Shown here piece by piece: positions 2,372 to 62,929 of a stretch of DNA of 64,000 bases; position 1 is the first letter of the stretch, and each line of letters opens with the position of its first letter. The notes under the pieces are model-generated. The model was not told the DNA's origin. It ran no database searches and saw only the letters and a program-made list of their open reading frames with translations. The translations under genes were made by a program, and so were the position numbers. Origin of the DNA: Escherichia phage vB_EcoM_ASO1B; the sequence record MZ726792.1, one strand, 5' to 3'.

Positions 2372-3481
2372 ATGACTACTAAAACTAAAGCACAGATTGA
2401 CGCAGAAATTTACAAACTGGTTAAAGAAGGTAAGCTGACTAAAACAGCTATTGCACAGAAATTTAATACTTCAACCCGTTCAGTCGGTCGTGCTGTAGAG
2501 CGTCATGAAGCAACCTTAAAAGGTAAGAAAAAGGTAGCTTCTAAACCAGCTACGAAGACTTTGAAGCAAGTTGCTAAGACCTTTAAAAAGAAAGCTGACA
2601 AGCCAGTTAAAAAGGTTGTTAAAGATTCTGTACAGAAAGCTCCAGTAAATAAACTGCACGAAGCTATGCAGAAAGATGACAAGATTGAGTACATGATTAC
2701 TGGCGACTCTGTAATTATGACTTACGGTTCAGAATCTGAAATTGTTGAGTCTACTCATCCGAACTATCAAGAGATTGTAGTTCATGTTGTGAAAGGTGAG
2801 TTCAAGAAAGCCTTTGAACTGATGAACATTCGTAAGTCTATCGAAAACTTCACGCAGGGAGCTATCACAATCAAAGGTGATAAGCTATTCTACGGTGCTG
2901 TTGAGATGCGTTCTACTCTGGTTGACCGTATACTTCACATGATGAAGACTGGTGATAAAGGTTTTGAACGACTTGTAATGTTCTTCGAAAAACTGATGGA
3001 AAACCCATCTAAAGATTCTGTAGAACAACTTTGGGGATTCATATCTCACCTTGATGTTGAAATTGATGAAGAAGGCTACATCATTGGTTGGAAGAAAGTC
3101 TCTACTCGTGAAGGCAAGCTGGTTGACTCCCGCACCTGCAAAGTACCTAATGATTTGGGTAACATTGTAGAAATGCCACGTTGGATGGTTGATAATAACC
3201 GTAACGTGACTTGCTCTCAAGGTCTTCACGTTGGTGCTTGGGATTATGTTCGTTACTTCTCAGGTGATACAATTCTGAAGGTTCGTGTCCATCCACGAGA
3301 CGTTGTATCCGTACCAACTGATTACAACGATATGAAGATGCGCTCGTCTCGTTATGAAGTTGCAGCAATCGTTGATAATCAACGTAAAGTACTGAAAGCA
3401 TGGGATGGCAAGACTGAAGCTTTGCATGTCATCGTTGGCACTGCTGGTGAACTTATCTCTCAGCGTAAACGTGAAATCTAA
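2372..3481 (+). CDS. rIIB: rIIB-like protein
   Basis: 369 aa; blocks recalled from T4 rIIB (EMRSTLVDRIL, NPSKDSVEQLW, CSQGLHV, VRVHPRDVVSVPTDYNDMKMR); ATG with purine-rich RBS. Confidence 0.85.
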   Translation: MTTKTKAQIDAEIYKLVKEGKLTKTAIAQKFNTSTRSVGRAVERHEATLKGKKKVASKPATKTLKQVAKTFKKKADKPVKKVVKDSVQKAPVNKLHEAMQKDDKIEYMITGDSVIMTYGSESEIVESTHPNYQEIVVHVVKGEFKKAFELMNIRKSIENFTQGAITIKGDKLFYGAVEMRSTLVDRILHMMKTGDKGFERLVMFFEKLMENPSKDSVEQLWGFISHLDVEIDEEGYIIGWKKVSTREGKLVDSRTCKVPNDLGNIVEMPRWMVDNNRNVTCSQGLHVGAWDYVRYFSGDTILKVRVHPRDVVSVPTDYNDMKMRSSRYEVAAIVDNQRKVLKAWDGKTEALHVIVGTAGELISQRKREI

Positions 3482-3498
3482 TAAGTAATTTCTTAAAA

Positions 3499-3521
3499 GG
3501 CTGCTTCGGCGGCCTTTTTTT
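3499..3521 (+). terminator. rho-independent terminator after rIIB
   Basis: GGCTGC-TTCG-GCGGCC hairpin followed by T7 run. Confidence 0.7.
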
Positions 3522-3582
3522 ATTTGTATTTTGTGCAGAGTGCTGTATAATTGTTGTCACGATAAACTAAACAGGAGAACCA

Positions 3583-4131
3583 ATGAAGAAATTGATTCTA
3601 GGTTTGTGCTTAATGCTTACAGCACACTTATCTTATGCAGTTGACTGCCCAGAGCTATCAATTAGCCAAAAAGTAAACATGTTAAAAGCTTACCAGTATG
3701 GTGAGAACAACATGGGTAAAGGTTGGGGTATCACTCTAGCTGCTATAGCCTTACAAGAGTCAGAGTTAGGTCTGAAGGTAGAGAATAAAAAGACACATGA
3801 TTATGGTATTTTCCAGAATCACTTGAAGACTGTTGTAAAGCGTAACAAAATTAGTCCTAATGTGGCTAAAAAGAAACTCTTAAAAGACTTTAACTATGCT
3901 GCGAAGGAAACTCACAAAGAGCTTGAGTTTTGGACAAAGGTGCATGGTCAGCCAAAGTCAAAGAAGACTTTACAAAAAGTTTTAGCATCATATAATGCTG
4001 GGTATTCGTACAAAATCCCTAAAGCTAAGAAATATTCTCAAGATGTCTATAACAACATGAAAGTCATTGCTCAATGTGAATTTGCAACAAACATTTCTAA
4101 GGTAAACCATGAAAAAATTAAAAAAGTCTGA
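3583..4131 (+). CDS. secreted lytic transglycosylase (SLT-domain) protein
   Basis: N-terminal signal peptide MKKLILGLCLMLTAHLSYA; SLT-like motifs ALQESELG, GIFQ, YNAGY; RBS AGGAG. Confidence 0.55.
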   Translation: MKKLILGLCLMLTAHLSYAVDCPELSISQKVNMLKAYQYGENNMGKGWGITLAAIALQESELGLKVENKKTHDYGIFQNHLKTVVKRNKISPNVAKKKLLKDFNYAAKETHKELEFWTKVHGQPKSKKTLQKVLASYNAGYSYKIPKAKKYSQDVYNNMKVIAQCEFATNISKVNHEKIKKV

Positions 4132-4804
4132 TGAAGTGCTGTGTCATGCTTACGACTTACATCCTCATGAGTTAGGTCTTGATTCCTGTGTATGGACTCC
4201 AGAACAGTGTAGGGATTTTGAAGACACTGCAAGAGAAGTTGTATGTTCACTCGAAGAGTTCCACACATCAGAGCCAATTGTGAATGTTGTAGATAAAGAG
4301 ACTGGACAAACTATAGGTGTAAGTCGTGATAGCTTAGTCATAGTCAATAAAGACCTTGTAGAAAAAGGTAACCTCATCTTAGCAGATATTGATGGTGTTC
4401 TTACAAATTTTAATCACGAAGATTGCTCAACGGAATTGACTGATGGGTCATTCTCACAGTACACTAATCTTCTTGACTCTGTAAGAGCAAAACCAACGTA
4501 TGTCTTTAGTATTATTGATGCAATTGCTAATCATGCTGCCATTGGACTCTTGACAGCGAGAGGTGAATCTCAGAGAATACCTACTGAGATGTTTTTAAGG
4601 CACAATATAGAGCATGATTACTTGCTTTTTATGCGTGGTTTTGGAACTAACTCTATAAGTGTAGAAAGTTTGAAAGTGAGGATGATTCAGTCTTGCATCC
4701 TGCCTTACTTTAATATAGTATGTTTTATAGAAGACACAGAGAAGAATGTGCAGAAGGTGAACAGAATCCTTCCACACATTAAAACCATGTTAGTTAAACA
4801 TTGA
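4109..4804 (+). CDS. HAD-like hydrolase (putative phosphatase or nucleotidase)
   Basis: 231 aa; motif LILADIDGVLTNF fits HAD motif I (DxDG[TV]L); overlaps previous stop by 23 nt. Confidence 0.35.
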   Translation: MKKLKKSDEVLCHAYDLHPHELGLDSCVWTPEQCRDFEDTAREVVCSLEEFHTSEPIVNVVDKETGQTIGVSRDSLVIVNKDLVEKGNLILADIDGVLTNFNHEDCSTELTDGSFSQYTNLLDSVRAKPTYVFSIIDAIANHAAIGLLTARGESQRIPTEMFLRHNIEHDYLLFMRGFGTNSISVESLKVRMIQSCILPYFNIVCFIEDTEKNVQKVNRILPHIKTMLVKH

Positions 4805-4814
4805 GAGAAAACTT

Positions 4815-5279
4815 ATGAACAATATCATTACGGTAGCACTGGACGATACGGTAAACAAATCTGCAATAGTTCGTAAAATGATTCAAGGTAACTTTGAAGG
4901 TAAAATTTTTCGTGCTGTTAATGTAAAAGCTGATGGCAGCATTCGTGAATATCGTGCATTATTGAATGTTAAAAAACACGTAAAAGGTGCTGGTTCAACT
5001 ACTGCACACAAAGAAAACCTGATGACTATCTATGATATGGGCAAGGCTTCAGAGTTAGGTGCTGAAGGTATCGTTAAAGAAGGTGCTCCGTATCGCTCTT
5101 TCAATCTGGAAACTACTCTTATGCTTTCCTTTACAAGTGGTTCTAAAACAATCACTTATCTCTTTACTGATGCTGCAACGGTATCTGCTATTAAGGATAG
5201 CACTGTCAAAGCTGGCGTAGTTGCTGCTGCAAAAGCTTCTTCGATGGCTGCGAATATCCTTGCTAAAGTCCTCGGTTAA
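4815..5279 (+). CDS. hypothetical protein
   Basis: 154-aa ORF, ATG start, followed by strong terminator. Confidence 0.55.
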   Translation: MNNIITVALDDTVNKSAIVRKMIQGNFEGKIFRAVNVKADGSIREYRALLNVKKHVKGAGSTTAHKENLMTIYDMGKASELGAEGIVKEGAPYRSFNLETTLMLSFTSGSKTITYLFTDAATVSAIKDSTVKAGVVAAAKASSMAANILAKVLG

Positions 5280-5291
5280 GGTTAAGATACA

Positions 5292-5312
5292 GGCTCCTTC
5301 GGGAGCCTTTTT
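5292..5312 (+). terminator. rho-independent terminator
   Basis: GGCTCC-TTCG-GGAGCC hairpin followed by T-run. Confidence 0.7.
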
Positions 5313-5331
5313 CATTTTAGGAGATTGTTAA

Positions 5332-5679
5332 ATGACATTTAAAGAGTTCTGTCAAGCTACTTTCATAATTGTTTTCTTAGTTGGTGCAGGTGTCTGGGGA
5401 GGATACTCTTACAGAGACTATCAAGTTGCTGAAACTGAGCTAAATAATGAGAAACTAATAAGTGTTGCTAAAGATGCTTATCAGGAAGGTTTAGCCACAC
5501 TCAGCACCAATTACAAAAATGATTTGAAAGATGTGCTTGCTAAGAATAAGCATACAAAAGAGGTACTAACATATGAAAAAACTAAGCCAGAGTTTTATAA
5601 TGTTTGTGTTACTGATAACTATGTCAGGGTGTTCAACGAACAAAGTGAGCAGTACATTCAAAAACTCCCAAGTAAGTGA
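5332..5679 (+). CDS. putative i-spanin (N-terminal TM helix, periplasmic coiled-coil)
   Basis: 115 aa; hydrophobic FIIVFLVGAGVWGG near N-terminus then charged helical region; RBS AGGAG; overlapped by lipoprotein ORF in another frame. Confidence 0.4.
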   Translation: MTFKEFCQATFIIVFLVGAGVWGGYSYRDYQVAETELNNEKLISVAKDAYQEGLATLSTNYKNDLKDVLAKNKHTKEVLTYEKTKPEFYNVCVTDNYVRVFNEQSEQYIQKLPSK

Positions 5680-5842
5680 GGGTGATAAGTACACCCAAGA
5701 AGAATCACGGTATATCATCAAAGGCAACACAGGCAGCGATGTAGCAGCAGCCCTTGAGTTCTATCGTGACGGCTTTTACCAGTGCACAATCAAAGCTAAC
5801 AACCTTATTGACATGATTTTATTAGGGAATAAGCAGCAATGA
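5573..5842 (+). CDS. putative o-spanin lipoprotein (overlapped architecture)
   Basis: 89 aa; signal plus lipobox-like ITMSGC; starts inside 3' end of preceding ORF in +1 frame; RBS AAAGAGG. Confidence 0.4.
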   Translation: MKKLSQSFIMFVLLITMSGCSTNKVSSTFKNSQVSEGDKYTQEESRYIIKGNTGSDVAAALEFYRDGFYQCTIKANNLIDMILLGNKQQ

Positions 5843-6108
5843 CAGAGAATCAAGATACTTTTTACGTAGAAGGGTACTTACTGTTACCACGACCAAAAGA
5901 GACTTATATGCGAATTGATTTCTCACCAACCATTATGGATAATGTGATGTGCCATATCTTTATGCAAGGTGTCACAGCACAGCTTAAACATGTTGGTAAA
6001 GAGTGCAAAATAAAGGTTGACACTCATCCAGAAATCAAAGAGAATCACTACACATGGTTCTTACCAGATTCTAAAGAAATCTTAGCAGTTCTTAAAACGA
6101 GGAAGTAG
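5839..6108 (+). CDS. hypothetical protein
   Basis: 89-aa ORF, ATG overlapping upstream stop (translational coupling). Confidence 0.5.
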   Translation: MTENQDTFYVEGYLLLPRPKETYMRIDFSPTIMDNVMCHIFMQGVTAQLKHVGKECKIKVDTHPEIKENHYTWFLPDSKEILAVLKTRK

Positions 6109-6110
6109 CT

Positions 6111-6437
6111 ATGCAGATTAATGGAAGAGACTTTGTAGCCGTTTACTATGATAACAATAAAGAAGTTGGTGTAGCACAGGTAACCTATGGCAATGGTAAG
6201 TGGCTATATGGAACAATCGCAGTAGTAGGAACAAGAAGTGATACAAAAACTTTTAAAGATTGTGTTGACCTTCTTGAAGAATCCATCCACAATCATTGGT
6301 GTCTGATATGGATGACTGATAACGAAGTGATGGAGCGTTTCAAAAAGATTGATATCAACATTGACAGTATTGAGCATGTTGATTTATATGAACTAACTGA
6401 GAAGGTAAACTATGAAAGTAATACTAGCCAGAGATAA
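6111..6437 (+). CDS. hypothetical protein
   Basis: 108-aa ORF, tightly packed after previous gene. Confidence 0.5.
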   Translation: MQINGRDFVAVYYDNNKEVGVAQVTYGNGKWLYGTIAVVGTRSDTKTFKDCVDLLEESIHNHWCLIWMTDNEVMERFKKIDINIDSIEHVDLYELTEKVNYESNTSQR

Positions 6438-6832: not shown

Positions 6833-7618
6833 ATGGGTATTGTAAAAATCATCAATGGTGATATCTTTGCTGCATTTGATAAAGGTAAGTTTGACATCAT
6901 TGGTCATGGTTGTAACTGCATGAACCTAATGGGCGCAGGTATCGCTGACAAGATTTCTAAACTTTACCCAAAAGCATATGAGACCGATACAGAAGTTTAT
7001 CTCTATGCAGGTGGTATAGGTCACAAACCCTGTGAGAATTTACTAGGTAATTTCTCTGTAGCACGCTTAAAACAAGGTCGTATAGCTAACCTTTACACTC
7101 AGCTTAAGACTGGTAAAGATGCCCGATACAGTGCTTTAGAGTCATCTTTGAAGCAACTTAACAGATACTGTGAAGTTAATCAGTTGAAGAAAGTTGGTTT
7201 ACCTATGATTGGTGCAGGTATCGGTGAACTTGACCCTCAAGCCGTCACAGTTATCATCAATCAGGTGATGAAGAGTGTAGATGTTTATCTATATGTCTAT
7301 GAAGGAGAGATGTACCACAAGTTACTCTCAGGTTGGAAGAACTACTGTGAACCAGAATACTTTGCAGGTGTAGCAGTGTTCACAGATAACGCAGTTACCC
7401 TCTTCAGACGAAGAAAAGGTAAGATACATCAAAGTAACCCTCCGGTTGAAAAGATGTCTCTAAGTAACGCTCTAGTTACCCACCTGTCAAAGAGCAATCA
7501 CAGAATTGCTGTAACATTTGGTAGTGATGCAGAAGCTTATATCTATGCAAGAACTGATGAGGATATTGAGGCAATCTTCTCTTCACCAGAAGTTACCTTC
7601 TTAGACGCAAAGAACTAA
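6833..7618 (+). CDS. macro-domain protein (putative ADP-ribose processing enzyme)
   Basis: 261 aa; N-terminal GDIF...DIIGHGCNCMNLMGAGIA and later GLPMIGAGIGELDP resemble macro-domain glycine-rich boxes. Confidence 0.55.
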   Translation: MGIVKIINGDIFAAFDKGKFDIIGHGCNCMNLMGAGIADKISKLYPKAYETDTEVYLYAGGIGHKPCENLLGNFSVARLKQGRIANLYTQLKTGKDARYSALESSLKQLNRYCEVNQLKKVGLPMIGAGIGELDPQAVTVIINQVMKSVDVYLYVYEGEMYHKLLSGWKNYCEPEYFAGVAVFTDNAVTLFRRRKGKIHQSNPPVEKMSLSNALVTHLSKSNHRIAVTFGSDAEAYIYARTDEDIEAIFSSPEVTFLDAKN

Positions 7619-7686
7619 GAAACTCTGTAGGATATTCACAATAGCCTAAGCCTTTCTTATCTGGTAAATTTTTCAGGTAAGGAGGG

Positions 7687-7873
7687 CTTTTTCATTTCAG
7701 ATTTGTGCAGGTAGAGTTCTGTAGAGAAATCTATAGAGAAAATTTTGAACTCCAAAGAGAAAATTCATTTTCAAACTGTGCAGGTAATCTCCAAAGAGCT
7801 TTTTCATTTTCAAAACGTGCAGACCCCGCTCAGGTCGGGCAAGAAAAATCATTTTAGAATTGTGCAGGTAGGT
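7687..7873. repeat. four direct repeats of ~25 bp (TTTCATTTyCArAwyTGTGCAGGTA)
   Basis: copies near 7687, 7765, 7798, 7848 in a non-coding stretch. Confidence 0.7.
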
Positions 7874-21231: not shown

Positions 21232-21696
21232 TTACTTTGGATATACACTGTCAAGATAAATGTTAGCTTCCATTCTACGTCTGTTTTTCAGTCCGTTTGA
21301 AGTAACCTTCTCACCTTTGACTGTAATCTTGTTCCACCACTGCATAGCTTCTGCACAACCTACCTTATTACCAGCATTGTGGCGCTTGATAAATGTAGAG
21401 TCCTGCATAGCTGTGATACCGATGTTGTATGTTTCACTTACAAGTGCGTCGAACTCATTCTGAGAAGTGGGAACCTTGATAGCTTTGTTCACTGCTGCAA
21501 CAAACTTTTCAACATCTGTGAGAAGATACTGTTCAGCTTGTGCAGCCGTGATTTTCATACCCATCTTAACAGGTTTTCCGTCAATACGGATTGTACCATA
21601 CCCGATTGTTGGGATTCCGGCAGAATCTTTGTAAGCCTCTAACTTCAGACCTTCAAAGAACTTAATGGCTTCTAAGCCTTTTCTTGAGAGTTGCAT
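21232..21696 (-). CDS. endolysin, T4-lysozyme-like muramidase (GH24)
   Basis: 154 aa; EGLKLEAYKDSAGIPTIGYGT matches the catalytic block of phage lysozymes (Glu, Asp, Thr triad region). Confidence 0.8.
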   Translation of the reverse strand: MQLSRKGLEAIKFFEGLKLEAYKDSAGIPTIGYGTIRIDGKPVKMGMKITAAQAEQYLLTDVEKFVAAVNKAIKVPTSQNEFDALVSETYNIGITAMQDSTFIKRHNAGNKVGCAEAMQWWNKITVKGEKVTSNGLKNRRRMEANIYLDSVYPK

Positions 21697-22829
21697 TATA
21701 CCTCCCCTGCTGGGTTAACTGTGACTGTTGCTGCATTAGATGTTACAGAACCACCTGCACCAGTAACTACACAGGTGTAGCTTCCTGAATCAGTAGCGGT
21801 TGCACCTTCTTTGGTGTAAGTTGCAGTAGTTGCATCGAGGATGTCTTCCTCACCTTTCTTCCACTGATAACCTGTCGCACCTGTTGCCACAACATTCAGT
21901 GTTAAGGTCTCACCTTCAGTGATTTCTTGATTGGTTGGTTGCTGAGTGATTACCGGAAGTGCATTCACAGTTACTACAGCAGCATTAGATTCCACTGCAC
22001 CACCTGCACCTGTTACAACGCAAGTGTATGAACCAGCATCTGCTGGCAGCGCACCAGACTTGCTATAGGTAGCCTCTGTAGCCGAAGGAATGTCAGAGCC
22101 ATCTTTCTTCCACTGGTAACCCGTTGCACCCGTTGCAGTCACTTCCAAGCTGATGTTTCCACCCTCATTGATGGTCTGGCTAGAAGGTTGCTGTGTAATC
22201 ACAGGCAGTGCGTTGACAGTAACTGTTGCCGCATCTGAGGTAACACTTGTACCAGCCTCTCCAGACACAACACAAGTATAAGAACCAGCATCAGAAGGTG
22301 CTACAGACTGTTTTGTGTAAGTTGCAGAATTGGCACTAGGGATATCCTCACCATCCTTCTTCCACTGATATCCAGTGGCGTTAGTTGCTAGAATGCTTAG
22401 AGTAAGTGTGCCACCCTCATTGACTGTTTGACCTGTTGGTTGCTGAGTAATTGCTGGTGGCTTAATAGCATCCTTCAACTTAGCATTCAACATTGAGAAC
22501 GGCTTAACTCTTGCCAACCATTCGCAGTAAATTGTGTCAACATCTTTACCATTGATGATTGCATACTGCAAATCCATGAAGAAATCAGCAGTTCTCATCT
22601 GTGCACCAACACTGTAAAGGAGTTCATCACTAAAAGGAACTTTGTAGTCTGGTTTGTAATCAAACTTCTCAACTTCTGCAATATCAGCTTCAGGCCAATA
22701 TGAACTATAGGTAAGTGGTAAAATAGCCTCTTGATATGTTCTAAAATCATATCTCTTACCAGCCTTTACATTTGCAACGAAACCTTTTACAAATTCTTTG
22801 AAGTCTGGGTAAGTCTTTGCTTTAATCAT
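21696..22829 (-). CDS. Ig-like repeat protein (Hoc-like surface/decoration candidate)
   Basis: 377 aa; three tandem ~90-aa repeats (ITQQP...GYQWKKDG...GSYTCVV...TVTVN) typical of Ig-like domains; N-terminal domain paralogous to next gene. Confidence 0.5.
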   Translation of the reverse strand: MIKAKTYPDFKEFVKGFVANVKAGKRYDFRTYQEAILPLTYSSYWPEADIAEVEKFDYKPDYKVPFSDELLYSVGAQMRTADFFMDLQYAIINGKDVDTIYCEWLARVKPFSMLNAKLKDAIKPPAITQQPTGQTVNEGGTLTLSILATNATGYQWKKDGEDIPSANSATYTKQSVAPSDAGSYTCVVSGEAGTSVTSDAATVTVNALPVITQQPSSQTINEGGNISLEVTATGATGYQWKKDGSDIPSATEATYSKSGALPADAGSYTCVVTGAGGAVESNAAVVTVNALPVITQQPTNQEITEGETLTLNVVATGATGYQWKKGEEDILDATTATYTKEGATATDSGSYTCVVTGAGGSVTSNAATVTVNPAGEV

Positions 22830-55060: not shown

Positions 55061-55258
55061 ATGCCTACAATCCTAGCAATTCTTCTAAAAAATCTAGGTA
55101 GCTTCTTCTGGAAACTCATTTTATCCCTTCTAAGTGAATACATGATTGAGAAAGTGTTCTTTAGGCTTGCAAGATACCTTGCGAGTAAAACAGACACACC
55201 TATTGATGATGAGTTCGTAGATAACTTAGAAAAAGCTTTTAAGGGGGAGAATAAATGA
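55061..55258 (+). CDS. small membrane protein (holin candidate)
   Basis: 65 aa, hydrophobic N-terminus, charged C-terminus; follows tail fibers. Confidence 0.35.
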   Translation: MPTILAILLKNLGSFFWKLILSLLSEYMIEKVFFRLARYLASKTDTPIDDEFVDNLEKAFKGENK

Positions 55259-55626
55259 AGTGGCTAGAGGAAGCTTTTAAAAATAATATTGGTGCAATTG
55301 TTGTTGGTATTTTTAGTGTTATTGGGATGTATACCACTATGCAAGTTTCAAGTGGTAAGCAAGAAGTGTCTGTCACAACAAAGTTACAGCAGCTAGATAA
55401 TTATTCCAAAAGTAACTATTCAGCTATTCGTGATTTACAGTCTGACATGAGACTGATTCAGCTAGGGATGGAGAACCAGAAAGTTCAGTTAGAGAACGTT
55501 AAGGGTGAGAATGCAAAACTTACCAAAACTCTTGATAAATTCTCTGACAGTGTGAATAATCTGGCTCAATCAGTATCAGCCTTGCAAGCTATTACTGAAA
55601 AGAACACAAAGAATACTGAAAAATAA
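55255..55626 (+). CDS. membrane-anchored coiled-coil protein
   Basis: 123 aa; TM segment IGAIVVGIFSVIGMYTT. Confidence 0.4.
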   Translation: MKWLEEAFKNNIGAIVVGIFSVIGMYTTMQVSSGKQEVSVTTKLQQLDNYSKSNYSAIRDLQSDMRLIQLGMENQKVQLENVKGENAKLTKTLDKFSDSVNNLAQSVSALQAITEKNTKNTEK

Positions 55627-58762: not shown

Positions 58763-59152
58763 TCAAATACCTGTGCAGCTTCTGTTTTCTAAGAAATACT
58801 CCACACCATACATAGCTTTTTGCATCAAATCTTCTTTAAACTGGATACGGTGGTTGAGCATCGCCTGTACATCAATATCATCACGGTGTTTCTCTTTAAT
58901 GTTTGCAGATTGCAGGAAATACTCTGCAAGAACACGATACTGGTAGTCAGTTACCTTATCAGTCATCTCTGTTAAAGACTCTTCAGAGATTGGTTTAAGT
59001 AGTTCACCATTAGCTAGAGCAACACCTTTTACAATCTGGCAAGTATCCTCTGGGACACCTGATAAGTTCACATTTGGCAGTTCTGTTGCATTAACTGGTA
59101 AACTCATTGCCATAACCATTGCAGCAGCTAATAAAATCTTTTTCATAAACAC
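58763..59152 (-). CDS. secreted hypothetical protein
   Basis: 129 aa; signal peptide MFMKKILLAAAMVMAMSLPVNA. Confidence 0.5.
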   Translation of the reverse strand: MFMKKILLAAAMVMAMSLPVNATELPNVNLSGVPEDTCQIVKGVALANGELLKPISEESLTEMTDKVTDYQYRVLAEYFLQSANIKEKHRDDIDVQAMLNHRIQFKEDLMQKAMYGVEYFLENRSCTGI

Positions 59153-62671: not shown

Positions 62672-62929
62672 TCACTCAATAACCGTAGTATGTGATTGAC
62701 CATTTTTGCCATAGCTATAAGATGTTGTTGTTTGAGAGTTTTGGCATCTGACAACAACAATATCTCTGCTTATAGCATCACCATTGAGTTTGTAGATTTT
62801 GCAGTCTTGCATCTCTGGAGGGAGGCTGTAAGAAGCATCTTTGTTTTCATAAGATGGGTTGCAGCCAGCCAGAAAAATTACTCCAAGTGCAACCATTGCT
62901 TTCACACAACTCTTAACCTTATTGTTCAC
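62672..62929 (-). CDS. lipoprotein
   Basis: 85 aa; signal with lipobox LAGC. Confidence 0.5.
   Translation of the reverse strand: MNNKVKSCVKAMVALGVIFLAGCNPSYENKDASYSLPPEMQDCKIYKLNGDAISRDIVVVRCQNSQTTTSYSYGKNGQSHTTVIE

Follow-up and report, generated by a model that had tools for sequence, protein, structure and literature searches.

The locus at positions 3583-5842 of the window (the whole 64,000-nt stretch of DNA analysed here, which belongs to a phage of the Felixounavirus, or Felix O1-like, group) raises the question of why a secreted SLT-domain protein, a HAD-like hydrolase and an overlapped pair resembling i- and o-spanins should be encoded so far from the endolysin gene. The first-pass annotation had offered two answers, either that the lysis genes are split between two loci or that the SLT protein has a non-lytic role, such as cell-wall remodelling during entry or superinfection exclusion. 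The four ORFs that it described were all recovered at the same coordinates (Table 1), and the region is 100% identical to that of vB_EcoM_ASO1A. Taken as a whole, the locus is best explained, with a probability of roughly three in four, as a T4-style dispersed set comprising a spanin pair, a lytic transglycosylase (LT) of the Vs.1 family and a Pnkp-type phosphatase.

Gene order and dispersal of the lysis functions

Table 1. Features of the window discussed in the text
Feature	Position	Strand	Remarks
rIIB homolog	2372-3481	+	directly upstream of the locus; PHROG RIIB E=6.7e-89; annotated rIIB
Intrinsic terminator behind rIIB	3495-3518	+	10-bp stem, UUCG loop, U-run; dG -14.7 kcal/mol, z=-4.0; also in the ASO1A record
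Predicted Vs.1-family secreted GH23/SLT lytic transglycosylase	3583-4131	+	182 aa; RBS AGGAGA upstream
Pnkp-type HAD phosphatase domain protein	4109-4804	+	231 aa; start overlaps the end of the LT gene by 23 nt
154-aa protein, phrog_2267	4815-5279	+	weak WYL_2/SH3-like match
Intrinsic terminator	5291-5308	+	7-bp GC stem, UUCG loop, U-run; z=-3.0; annotated in ASO1A
Predicted i-spanin	5332-5679	+	115 aa; N-terminal TMD
Predicted o-spanin	5573-5842	+	89 aa; lipobox lipoprotein; GAGG RBS
89-aa protein, phrog_4391	5839-6108	+	ATG overlaps the o-spanin stop (ATGA)
Macro-domain protein (T4 Tk.4-like)	6833-7618	+	NCBIfam DarG-like E=1.3e-11; final gene of the spanin transcription unit
Soluble GH24 (T4-lysozyme-type) endolysin	21232-21696	-	without signal or SAR sequence
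Putative holin	55255-55626	+	123 aa, single N-terminal TMD; end of the late structural operon

The second of the intrinsic terminators splits the unit formed by the LT gene, the HAD gene and gp005 from the spanin unit, and a further terminator is found at 7648-7689, beyond the macro-domain gene. The ATGA overlap suggests that translation of the 89-aa ORF may be coupled to that of the o-spanin. The macro-domain gene is context rather than a lysis gene, and its counterpart in Felix O1, ORF13, carries the GenBank note 'tk-vs intergenic region'. The phrog_2267 homolog of a divergent relative, like the window protein, gives a weak WYL_2 match. A promoter scan returned 17 candidates as against 13.3±3.6 in shuffled sequences, and thus no enrichment, and an NCBIfam search with the LT, the HAD protein, gp005 and the spanins gave nothing meaningful.

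The endolysin is indeed encoded on the opposite strand, as had been noted, and is a GH24 enzyme; Felix O1 gp35 carries pfam00959. The product of the putative holin gene, which is preceded by a 64-aa ORF (55061-55252), shares 91% identity with CPT_Moogle54, a curated 'putative holin'. Since the gene closes the late structural operon, it is probably the counterpart of gp79, the holin candidate of Felix O1. It is probably this gene that encodes the holin releasing the GH24 endolysin. The lysis genes therefore occupy at least three loci, with the LT and the spanins at 3.6-5.8 kb (the spanins themselves at 5.3-5.8 kb), the endolysin at 21.2 kb and the putative holin at 55.3 kb, so that the idea of a split between two loci was correct and even understated. 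The papers on Felix O1 and Moogle already describe such scattering. Rather than a second lysis cassette, the region is best seen as the form that a T4-style dispersal of lysis and accessory genes takes in Felixounavirus.

The HAD-like hydrolase of the earlier annotation is borne out by motifs I-IV (D93-I-D95-G-V, T149, K189 and E208-D209), which are invariant, and by the match of the Pnkp1 phosphatase domain (4xrp) to the profile of the HAD protein (E=2.3e-4). The domain spans aa ~87-220 and follows a unique N-terminal segment of ~85 aa that is unrelated to the kinase domain. Pfam HAD_PNKP is detected in 6 of the 10 family members (best E=2e-10), and T4 PseT aligns at the level of the motifs over its phosphatase part only. 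Both T4 PseT (Pnkp) and bacterial Pnkp1 possess a homologous C-terminal HAD phosphatase domain of the DxDxT type, but where T4 PseT has a 5'-kinase P-loop domain the window protein has its unrelated N-terminus. No P-loop or Walker A motif was found in the HAD protein, which lacks the 5'-kinase domain, and the label 'polynucleotide kinase' is thus an over-annotation. The gene presumably encodes a Pnkp-type HAD protein with 3'-phosphatase function only, acting on the ends of nucleic acids or nucleotides, and it is unrelated to lysis.

The putative spanin pair

The overlapped membrane protein and lipoprotein singled out by the first-pass annotation have the features expected of a two-component spanin. 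A TM scan places the single N-terminal TMD of the i-spanin at aa ~6-26 or, more narrowly, ~9-26, followed by a periplasmic domain, and the protein matches the Rz-like spanin phrog_1152 with E=8e-42; a single-sequence AF2 model is all-helical, but of low confidence (pLDDT 49). The o-spanin has a lipobox (LLITMSG-C20-S21) in which Ser, and no Asp, at +2 corresponds to outer-membrane sorting, and a mature part of 70 aa with one further cysteine (C71). It matches phrog_4180 (E=1e-49) and the Rz-like spanin phrog_456 (E=2e-3). The two genes share 107 nt (5573-5679) in different frames. Each partner contains a single periplasmic cysteine, C92 in the i-spanin and C71 in the o-spanin, conserved across genera, and the homotypic disulfide rule for spanins calls for at least one such residue (PMC6139136).

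Whether the lipoprotein ORF is more than a chance reading frame can be judged from its pattern of divergence. In the comparison with Mooglevirus Sf14, substitutions in the i-spanin gene fall 12/8/25 by codon position, with a third-position bias, and those in the non-overlapped part of the o-spanin gene fall 9/7/28 in its own frame, while the overlap displays the lowest divergence and no codon-position bias. Purifying selection acts on the frame of the o-spanin ORF itself, and the overlap is under dual-coding constraint. Mooglevirus, Kolesnikvirus and a podovirus of the Gordonclarkvirinae all keep an ORF that combines a lipobox with the same C-terminal motif; conservation of the lipobox extends to Sf14, EP335 and Fifi318, and the pair as such is retained across four phage genera. 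The concern that the ORF might not be translated is countered by this own-frame selection and conservation across genera. Many relatives carry an i-/o-spanin annotation, the o-spanin being ORF7 in Felix O1, and Felix O1 is among the overlapped spanins listed by Kongari et al. 2018 (PMC6139136).

The arrangement of an i-spanin with an N-terminal TMD and an o-spanin in the form of an outer-membrane lipoprotein is common to lambda Rz/Rz1, P2 LysB/LysC and T4 PseT.3/PseT.2. P2 shares the overlapped architecture, and in T4, as in the window, the spanin genes lie away from the endolysin and holin genes and beside a pseT-like gene. BLASTP of the window spanins against PseT.3/PseT.2 detected no similarity, so that the parallel with T4 is positional and functional only. 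The periplasmic cysteines also differ, since the T4 o-spanin contains two and its i-spanin partner lacks them (PMC6139136), as against one in each window partner. Lambda Rz1, moreover, is a proline-rich protein of 40 aa, unlike the longer, proline-free mature o-spanin described here.

These departures from lambda and T4 leave some room for the view that the genes, whose spanin role in this genus is a predicted one, do not encode spanins at all but are an accidental reading frame, or specify two membrane proteins that serve some other purpose, for example superinfection exclusion. Such a view is nevertheless very hard to sustain against the frame-specific selection and the dual-coding constraint, the strong family-level PHROG match, the retention of the pair across genera and the listing of the Felix O1 pair by Kongari et al., in addition to a topology, lipobox, +2 Ser and cysteine content that fit the spanin definition; T4-type o-spanins are likewise larger and helical (PMC6139136). 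The two ORFs are therefore read as a real overlapped i-/o-spanin pair with a predicted function in lysis. In this pair the i-spanin would be a type-II inner-membrane protein and the o-spanin an outer-membrane lipoprotein acylated at Cys20; together they would bridge the periplasm, each conserved cysteine being presumably available for a homodimer disulfide. By analogy with the lambda and T4 paradigms, the holin would free the GH24 endolysin, the wall would be destroyed and the spanins would then fuse the inner and outer membranes.

The predicted Vs.1-type lytic transglycosylase and its candidate roles

The first gene of the locus had been described as encoding a secreted SLT-domain protein, a description that agrees with the signal peptide, the invariant GH23 motifs and fold matches to GH23 enzymes only. 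The predicted signal peptide comprises aa 1-19, MKKLILGLCLMLTAHLSYA, with cleavage at SYA|VD, after Ala19. Against Pfam SLT (PF01464) the window protein by itself scores 18.9 bits (E=1.2e-3), below the cut-off of 21.3 bits, but 14 of 15 homologs match at E<0.01 (best E=8e-12), and the SLT assignment, weak from the window sequence alone, is solid at the family level. Among 150 diverse family representatives, the catalytic E-S motif (E59-S60) retains Glu in all 150 and Ser or Thr in all 150. The G-x-x-Q motif (G75...Q78) is invariant across the representatives, and within the (A/S)-Y-N-x-G motif (S136-Y137-N138-A-G140) and its trailing Tyr, residues Y137, G140 and Y151 are found in 150/150. Of 147 representatives, 137 carry an export segment at the N-terminus, and a C22/C165 pair is kept in close relatives.

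The structural evidence points in the same direction. With the AF2 model (pLDDT 84.8), every meaningful Foldseek match in the PDB was a GH23 enzyme (g-type lysozymes, a GH23 chitinase, EtgA, Cj0843, MltF and phiKZ gp144), with a TM of ~0.5 to all of them alike, for a model that includes disordered termini. Single-sequence phmmer against the PDB gave only a chance match (BvgS, E=1.7) and was uninformative, so that a family profile was needed; the best sequence match of this profile among solved structures was EtgA (8urn, E=3.3e-4). The protein is thus predicted to be a GH23/SLT lytic transglycosylase that is exported by Sec and has kept its catalytic motifs intact. It is also the full-length homolog of T4 Vs.1, with which it shares 32% identity (E=2e-16; T4 Vs.1 against the family profile, E=1.8e-36), a link already given in the GenBank note on Felix O1 ORF3. 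T4 Vs.1 (NP_049725, an 'uncharacterised 20.7 kDa protein in vs-regB intergenic region') resembles the LT in its size of ~180 aa, signal peptide and GH23 motifs, but has no counterpart of the C22/C165 pair; its gene is flanked by regB and vs and is distant from the spanins, whereas the window gene follows rIIB, 1.2 kb upstream of the spanins. An interpretation as a SAR endolysin, for which an uncleaved, weakly hydrophobic N-terminal TMD of ~18-20 residues with no signal peptidase site was taken as the criterion, was rejected, given an h-region of ~13 residues followed by an A/S-x-A cleavage motif conserved in all close homologs.

More than 2,100 phage records contain a member of the Vs.1 family, and the catalytic and export signals of these enzymes have stayed intact in phages of the T4-like, Vi1-like and Felix O1-like groups. 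A homolog assigned to 'Campylobacter coli', P0020, lies on a chimallin-bearing jumbo-phage contig and not in a Fletchervirus. The LT gene is linked to the spanin genes throughout the Ounavirinae; outside this subfamily, a search for vs.1 homologs linked in this way to lysis genes found none, the neighbours being genes of nucleotide metabolism and accessory genes. Regarding timing, T4 vs.1 and pseT.3 both combine early RNA with middle protein, and in Felix O1 RT-PCR has placed the peak of ORFs 3, 4 and 6 at 25 min, along with lysin ORF35. Published data hence answer in part the proposed check of expression timing, and the label 'early' given to the region conflicts with the timing of the Felix O1 orthologs. 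T4 Vs.1 and its Felix O1 counterpart are alike in being expressed before the late phase.

The presence of SLT or lysozyme domains in many phage virion proteins, such as T7 gp16 and T4 gp5, brings to mind a virion-borne enzyme that cuts the wall at DNA injection. A cleavable Sec signal peptide, however, would send the protein to the periplasm and away from virion assembly in the cytoplasm, ORFs 3-7 are all absent from the stringent virion proteome of Felix O1, and the text on VpaE1 virion mass spectrometry does not mention the LT; the wV8 paper offers no virion list of use in this respect. Given the absence of the LT from the Felix O1 virion, the entry role once proposed for the SLT protein is most improbable.

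A second endolysin of the signal-peptide type has more to recommend it. Such an enzyme would be Sec-exported, inactive in the energised envelope and unleashed by holin depolarisation to contribute substantial wall destruction alongside the GH24 endolysin. Its sequence features, a cleavable Sec signal and a muralytic domain, are both predicted in the LT, and the shared temporal class of the Felix O1 ortholog and the lysin, as well as the linkage to the spanin genes in the Ounavirinae, are consistent with it. In addition, an SP-SLT protein of the same topology and 188 aa is the Sec-dependent, holin-requiring endolysin of Campylobacter Fletchervirus F352 (PMC7692668), a large myovirus in which, as in Felixounavirus, the lysis genes are scattered and the two spanin genes overlap. 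On the other hand, the F352 enzyme is the only endolysin of its phage, whereas Felixounavirus encodes the soluble GH24 enzyme besides the LT, and membership of the F352/Los1_127 endolysin in the Vs.1 family was rejected (hmmsearch E=4; no match by hhalign). In T4, furthermore, the early transcript and the mid-infection accumulation of the protein are unusual for an endolysin. T4 e mutants fail to lyse though vs.1 is present, which argues against the enzyme being sufficient for lysis, so that any lytic contribution is minor or conditional. The LT is not the main lysin, and a true second endolysin is improbable.

A non-lytic task in the periplasm is less easily set aside. The LT could act as a 'space-maker' for an envelope-spanning complex in the manner of EtgA/VirB1, in superinfection exclusion, in resistance to lysis from without or in interference with the host envelope. 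The best match among solved structures is precisely EtgA, the LT dedicated to the T3SS of EPEC, and enzymes of the EtgA and IpgF/IagB/VirB1 type are, like the window protein, small, Sec-exported and built of a single GH23 domain. Expression well ahead of lysis, a position among early accessory genes rather than lysis genes in most lineages, and the normal endolysin encoded by every Vs.1-carrying phage examined would also suit such a task. The EtgA alignment, however, runs through the E-S, G-x-x-Q and YNAG motifs and is confined to the catalytic core; at this E value, and with a similar TM to all GH23 folds, it may reflect the shared core only. EtgA-type enzymes are, besides, encoded in and activated by their secretion apparatus, while the LT, at most a candidate for that group, is not known to have a partner or a phenotype; lambda-like phages, for their part, assemble spanins without any LT. 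A task of this kind is a serious but somewhat unlikely option.

The best guess, a tentative one to which we would give a little less than even odds, is that the LT is a non-essential helper of lysis. The enzyme would be exported by Sec, cut after Ala19 and released as a soluble periplasmic GH23 enzyme with Glu59 as its catalytic residue; made in mid-infection, it would sit in the periplasm well ahead of lysis without lysing the cell, and would nick or loosen the sacculus, thereby speeding up the last stage of wall destruction and the action of the spanins. The strong terminator between the LT gene and the spanins counts against this reading, as do the neighbours of the vs.1 homologs outside the Ounavirinae and the failure of T4 e mutants to lyse. 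The helper role is a guess because literature searches returned no experiment on any Vs.1-family protein, T4 vs.1 being covered only by a comparative-genomics note of 2006.

Implications for Felix O1-like phages and the Vs.1 family

The finding is real but ordinary, as the dispersed T4-like layout has already been documented for Felix O1-type phages, and its main value is to confirm a textbook-level organisation in which Felix O1-like phages scatter their lysis genes as T4 does. It also bears on existing annotations: the o-spanin CDS is missing from the ASO1A record, the o-spanin start is called too late in several relatives, with loss of the lipoprotein signal, and the two genes upstream are wrongly labelled 'polynucleotide kinase' and 'endoribonuclease'. 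What the secreted Vs.1-type LT does is the main question raised by the locus, and it has been on record since 2003-2006. One answer, which we consider a long shot, is that Vs.1-family enzymes are dedicated 'space-making' LTs, the viral counterpart of EtgA/VirB1, opening local gaps in the sacculus before lysis for i-/o-spanin bridges or other envelope machinery. If true, this would explain both the LT-spanin linkage in the Ounavirinae and the expression before lysis in Felix O1 and T4, and would give a function to a gene family carried by more than 2,000 sequenced virulent phages, T4 included.

A Vs.1-type transglycosylase and its HAD neighbour

The genes proposed by the first-pass annotation, encoding a secreted SLT protein, a HAD protein and an overlapped membrane protein/lipoprotein pair, are all present, each preceded by a plausible Shine-Dalgarno sequence.

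Features of the lysis-related loci and of other genes discussed (LT, lytic transglycosylase; gp005, protein of unknown function)
Feature	Position	Strand	Description
Terminator	3495-3518		strong, UUCG tetraloop; upstream of LT-HAD-gp005
LT	3583-4131	+	182 aa; N-terminus MKKLILGLCLMLTAHLSYA↓VDC
HAD protein	4109-4804	+	231 aa; DIDGV motif
Terminator	5291-5308		strong, UUCG tetraloop; downstream of LT-HAD-gp005
i-spanin	5332-5679	+	115 aa; single N-terminal TMD
o-spanin	5573-5842	+	89 aa; lipobox ...ITMSG-C20, Ser at +2
Uncharacterised protein	5839-6108		89 aa
Macro-domain protein	6833-7618	+	261 aa; Tk.4-like
Terminator	7648-7689
Endolysin	21232-21696	-	soluble GH24 lysozyme-type protein
Ig-like-repeat 'tail protein'	21696-22829	-	377 aa
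Small ORF	55061-55252	+	64 aa; hydrophobic N-terminus
Holin candidate	55255-55626	+	123 aa, single TMD; 91% identity to phage Moogle curated 'putative holin'
Putative secreted protein	58763-59152	-	129 aa; cleavable-looking signal peptide (MFMKKILLAAAMVMAMSLPVNA↓TE)
Putative lipoprotein	62672-62929	-	85 aa; textbook lipoprotein signal (…VIFLAG-C)

By sequence comparison, the SLT protein is the homolog of T4 Vs.1 (32% identity over the full length, E=2e-16), a link already contained in the GenBank note on Felix O1 ORF3 ('hypothetical 20.7 KD protein in vs-regB intergenic region'). By tblastn, 2,128 phage records contain a homolog, among them records of Straboviridae (T4-like), Ackermannviridae and phages of Vibrio, Aeromonas and Acinetobacter; the T4 match is vs.1, located between regB and vs, and the LT family profile picks up T4 Vs.1 at E=1.8e-36. 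Alone, the LT scores 18.9 bits against Pfam SLT, below the 21.3-bit threshold, and its PHROG match (PHROG 600) has no assigned function; 14 of 15 homologs match Pfam SLT. The best solved-structure sequence match of the family profile is EtgA, a T3SS-dedicated transglycosylase (E=3.3e-4), followed by goose-type lysozymes, and the AF2 model (pLDDT 84.8) matches the GH23 fold only. In the homolog alignment the GH23 motif residues E59, Q78, Y137-N138-x-G140 and Y151 are invariant, and S60 is nearly so. The N-terminus has the classic n-h-c layout of a signal peptide, including a small-x-small cleavage site, and the LT is predicted to be exported, cleaved and catalytically competent.

An exhaustive profile search yielded 605 clusters (50% identity) at E≤1e-10, of which almost all are 150-200 aa long. 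Among the best 150 of these, the catalytic Glu, Y137, G140 and Y151 occur in 150/150. Of the 147 members starting with Met, 137 have a hydrophobic segment for export at the N-terminus, and those lacking it look like truncated starts; export and catalytic features are thus kept family-wide. All distant members inspected lie on phage contigs. On a 214-kb contig of a Campylobacter coli assembly (ACBEZJ010000004.1, GCA_053226485.1) a PhiKZ-type chimallin gene adjoins a Vs.1-family SLT gene, which suggests a nucleus-forming jumbo phage sequence within a bacterial assembly. In phages mistaenkt, Tian, kvi, G2248 and Phi_10 the Vs.1-like transglycosylase is wrongly labelled 'endoribonuclease / site-specific RNA endonuclease', a name probably carried over from the neighbouring T4 regB.

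Motifs I-IV of the HAD protein (D93-x-D95-G, T149, K189, E208-D209) are invariant. Its family profile matches the Pnkp1 phosphatase domain (4xrp residues 177-299, E=2.3e-4), with a weak match to T4 Pnk, and Pfam HAD_PNKP is matched by 6/10 family members. The protein lacks a P-loop, and its N-terminal 85 aa are unrelated to a kinase domain. By sequence, it is a phosphatase-only relative of T4 PseT, sharing the phosphatase domain but having no counterpart of the kinase domain, and it plays no part in lysis.

The overlapped spanin pair

The pair described as spanin-like is a genuine spanin pair and was known before. Its i-spanin matches PHROG 'Rz-like spanin' (E=8e-42), many relatives carry the label 'o-spanin' on the lipoprotein ORF (Felix O1 ORF7), and the overlapped spanins listed by Kongari et al. 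(2018; PMC6139136) include Felix01/FO1a/UAB_phi87 and FSL_SP-010/012. Translation of the lipoprotein ORF, which overlaps the i-spanin gene out of frame by 107 nt, was assessed from selection by codon position against Mooglevirus Sf14. Substitutions are distributed 9/7/28 in the non-overlapped part of the o-spanin (lipoprotein frame) and 12/8/25 in the i-spanin-only part (i-spanin frame), and the overlap, with 13 substitutions, is the least divergent segment and lacks codon-position bias, which is the signature expected of dual coding. LE[FWY][YW][RQ]D..[YF]..C...N.LI is a C-terminal motif shared by the overlapped lipobox ORFs of the window, Sf14, Erwinia Kolesnikvirus Fifi318 and the Gordonclarkvirinae podovirus EP335. 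The i-spanin (C92) and the o-spanin (C71) carry a single conserved periplasmic Cys apiece, a predicted pattern that fits the disulfide rule of Kongari et al.

The o-spanin start is annotated too late in ekra (4721-4942), Sf14 (3314-3508) and Fifi318 (3814-3987), so that several GenBank entries have lost the lipoprotein signal peptide; the EP335 record holds a mere fragment (3314-3439), as hypothetical, and the ASO1A record lacks the CDS altogether. The longer starts are conserved (Sf14 3242, Fifi318 3712, EP335 3179). At 5839-5842 the o-spanin stop overlaps the start of the next gene (ATGA), suggesting translational coupling of its product to the pair.

Dispersed lysis loci, timing and genome context

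The LT, HAD and gp005 genes form one unit bracketed by terminators; the next begins with the spanins and runs through the macro-domain gene to its own terminator. The order LT, HAD, ..., spanins, ..., macro domain is common to Felixounavirus, Mooglevirus, Kolesnikvirus and a more divergent metagenomic relative. Outside Ounavirinae, no vs.1 homolog adjoining lysis genes was found in the Straboviridae, Ackermannviridae and Cobetia phage contexts, where the neighbours are regB/vs/tk.4/tk, SbcCD and, nearby, a dCTP deaminase, respectively. The macro-domain protein, counterpart of T4 Tk.4, matches the model of the DarG antitoxin, an ADP-ribosyl glycohydrolase (E=1.3e-11), and may act in counter-defence against ADP-ribosylating systems; its gene and the vs.1 homolog lie a few kb apart in T4, Slopekvirus and Ounavirinae.

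The endolysin is indeed distant and on the other strand. The holin candidate, at the end of the late structural operon, resembles T4 holin T, with its single TMD and long C-terminal domain, more than class I/II holins; the small hydrophobic ORF directly precedes it there. Because spanins, endolysin and holin homolog are placed apart, lysis functions occupy at least three loci, so the suggested split holds and had already been published. The T4 spanins pseT.3/pseT.2 are likewise distant from the T4 holin and endolysin (PMC6139136). No sequence similarity between them and the window pair was detected.

In published Felix O1 RT-PCR data, ORFs 1, 3, 4 and 6 peak at 25 min with the lysin ORF35, and ORFs 2 and 5 at 10 min (ORF7 is unlisted); the label 'early' given to this region is thus too simple. 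ORFs 3-7 are all absent from the stringent Felix O1 virion proteome, so the SLT protein is not borne out as a virion component. T4 vs.1 and pseT.3 are classed as 'early RNA / middle protein' and pseT.2 as early/early, which, together with the Felix O1 timing, indicates that in both systems the secreted enzyme and the spanins are already present long before the cell lyses.

Over 3400-6200 the window shares 100% identity with Escherichia phage vB_EcoM_ASO1A (MZ726791; Ounavirinae, Felixounavirus) and 96-99% with ~100 further Felixounavirus genomes. Elsewhere the match to ASO1A is slightly less exact: the two are offset by 6 bp, and the Ig-like-repeat 'tail protein' is longer in the window (294 aa in ASO1A, about one ~83-aa repeat fewer). 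Across 20.5-24 kb it is phage XTG1 that the window matches at 100% identity. The window is thus a Felixounavirus very near both phages and mosaic relative to database records. Two further reverse-strand ORFs could encode another lipoprotein of the phage, e.g. one of superinfection-exclusion type (62672-62929), and a predicted secreted protein (58763-59152).

Possible roles of the transglycosylase

On the lambda and T4 paradigms, the spanins would form a periplasm-spanning complex restrained by the intact wall, and wall removal by the endolysin would allow them to fuse inner and outer membranes. Because the LT would spend much of the cycle in the periplasm while the cell stays intact, it would not be an unrestrained lysin. 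T4 e mutants fail to lyse although vs.1 is present, so a Vs.1-type LT is insufficient for lysis. We favour, at a probability of about 0.4, a non-essential helper that loosens the wall. A non-lytic role, such as making space for periplasmic complexes or exclusion, is somewhat less likely. It is improbable that the LT is a real holin-activated SP-endolysin, for which F352 Lys is the only experimental precedent, and this enzyme is an analogue outside the Vs.1 family. None of these findings is new in kind.
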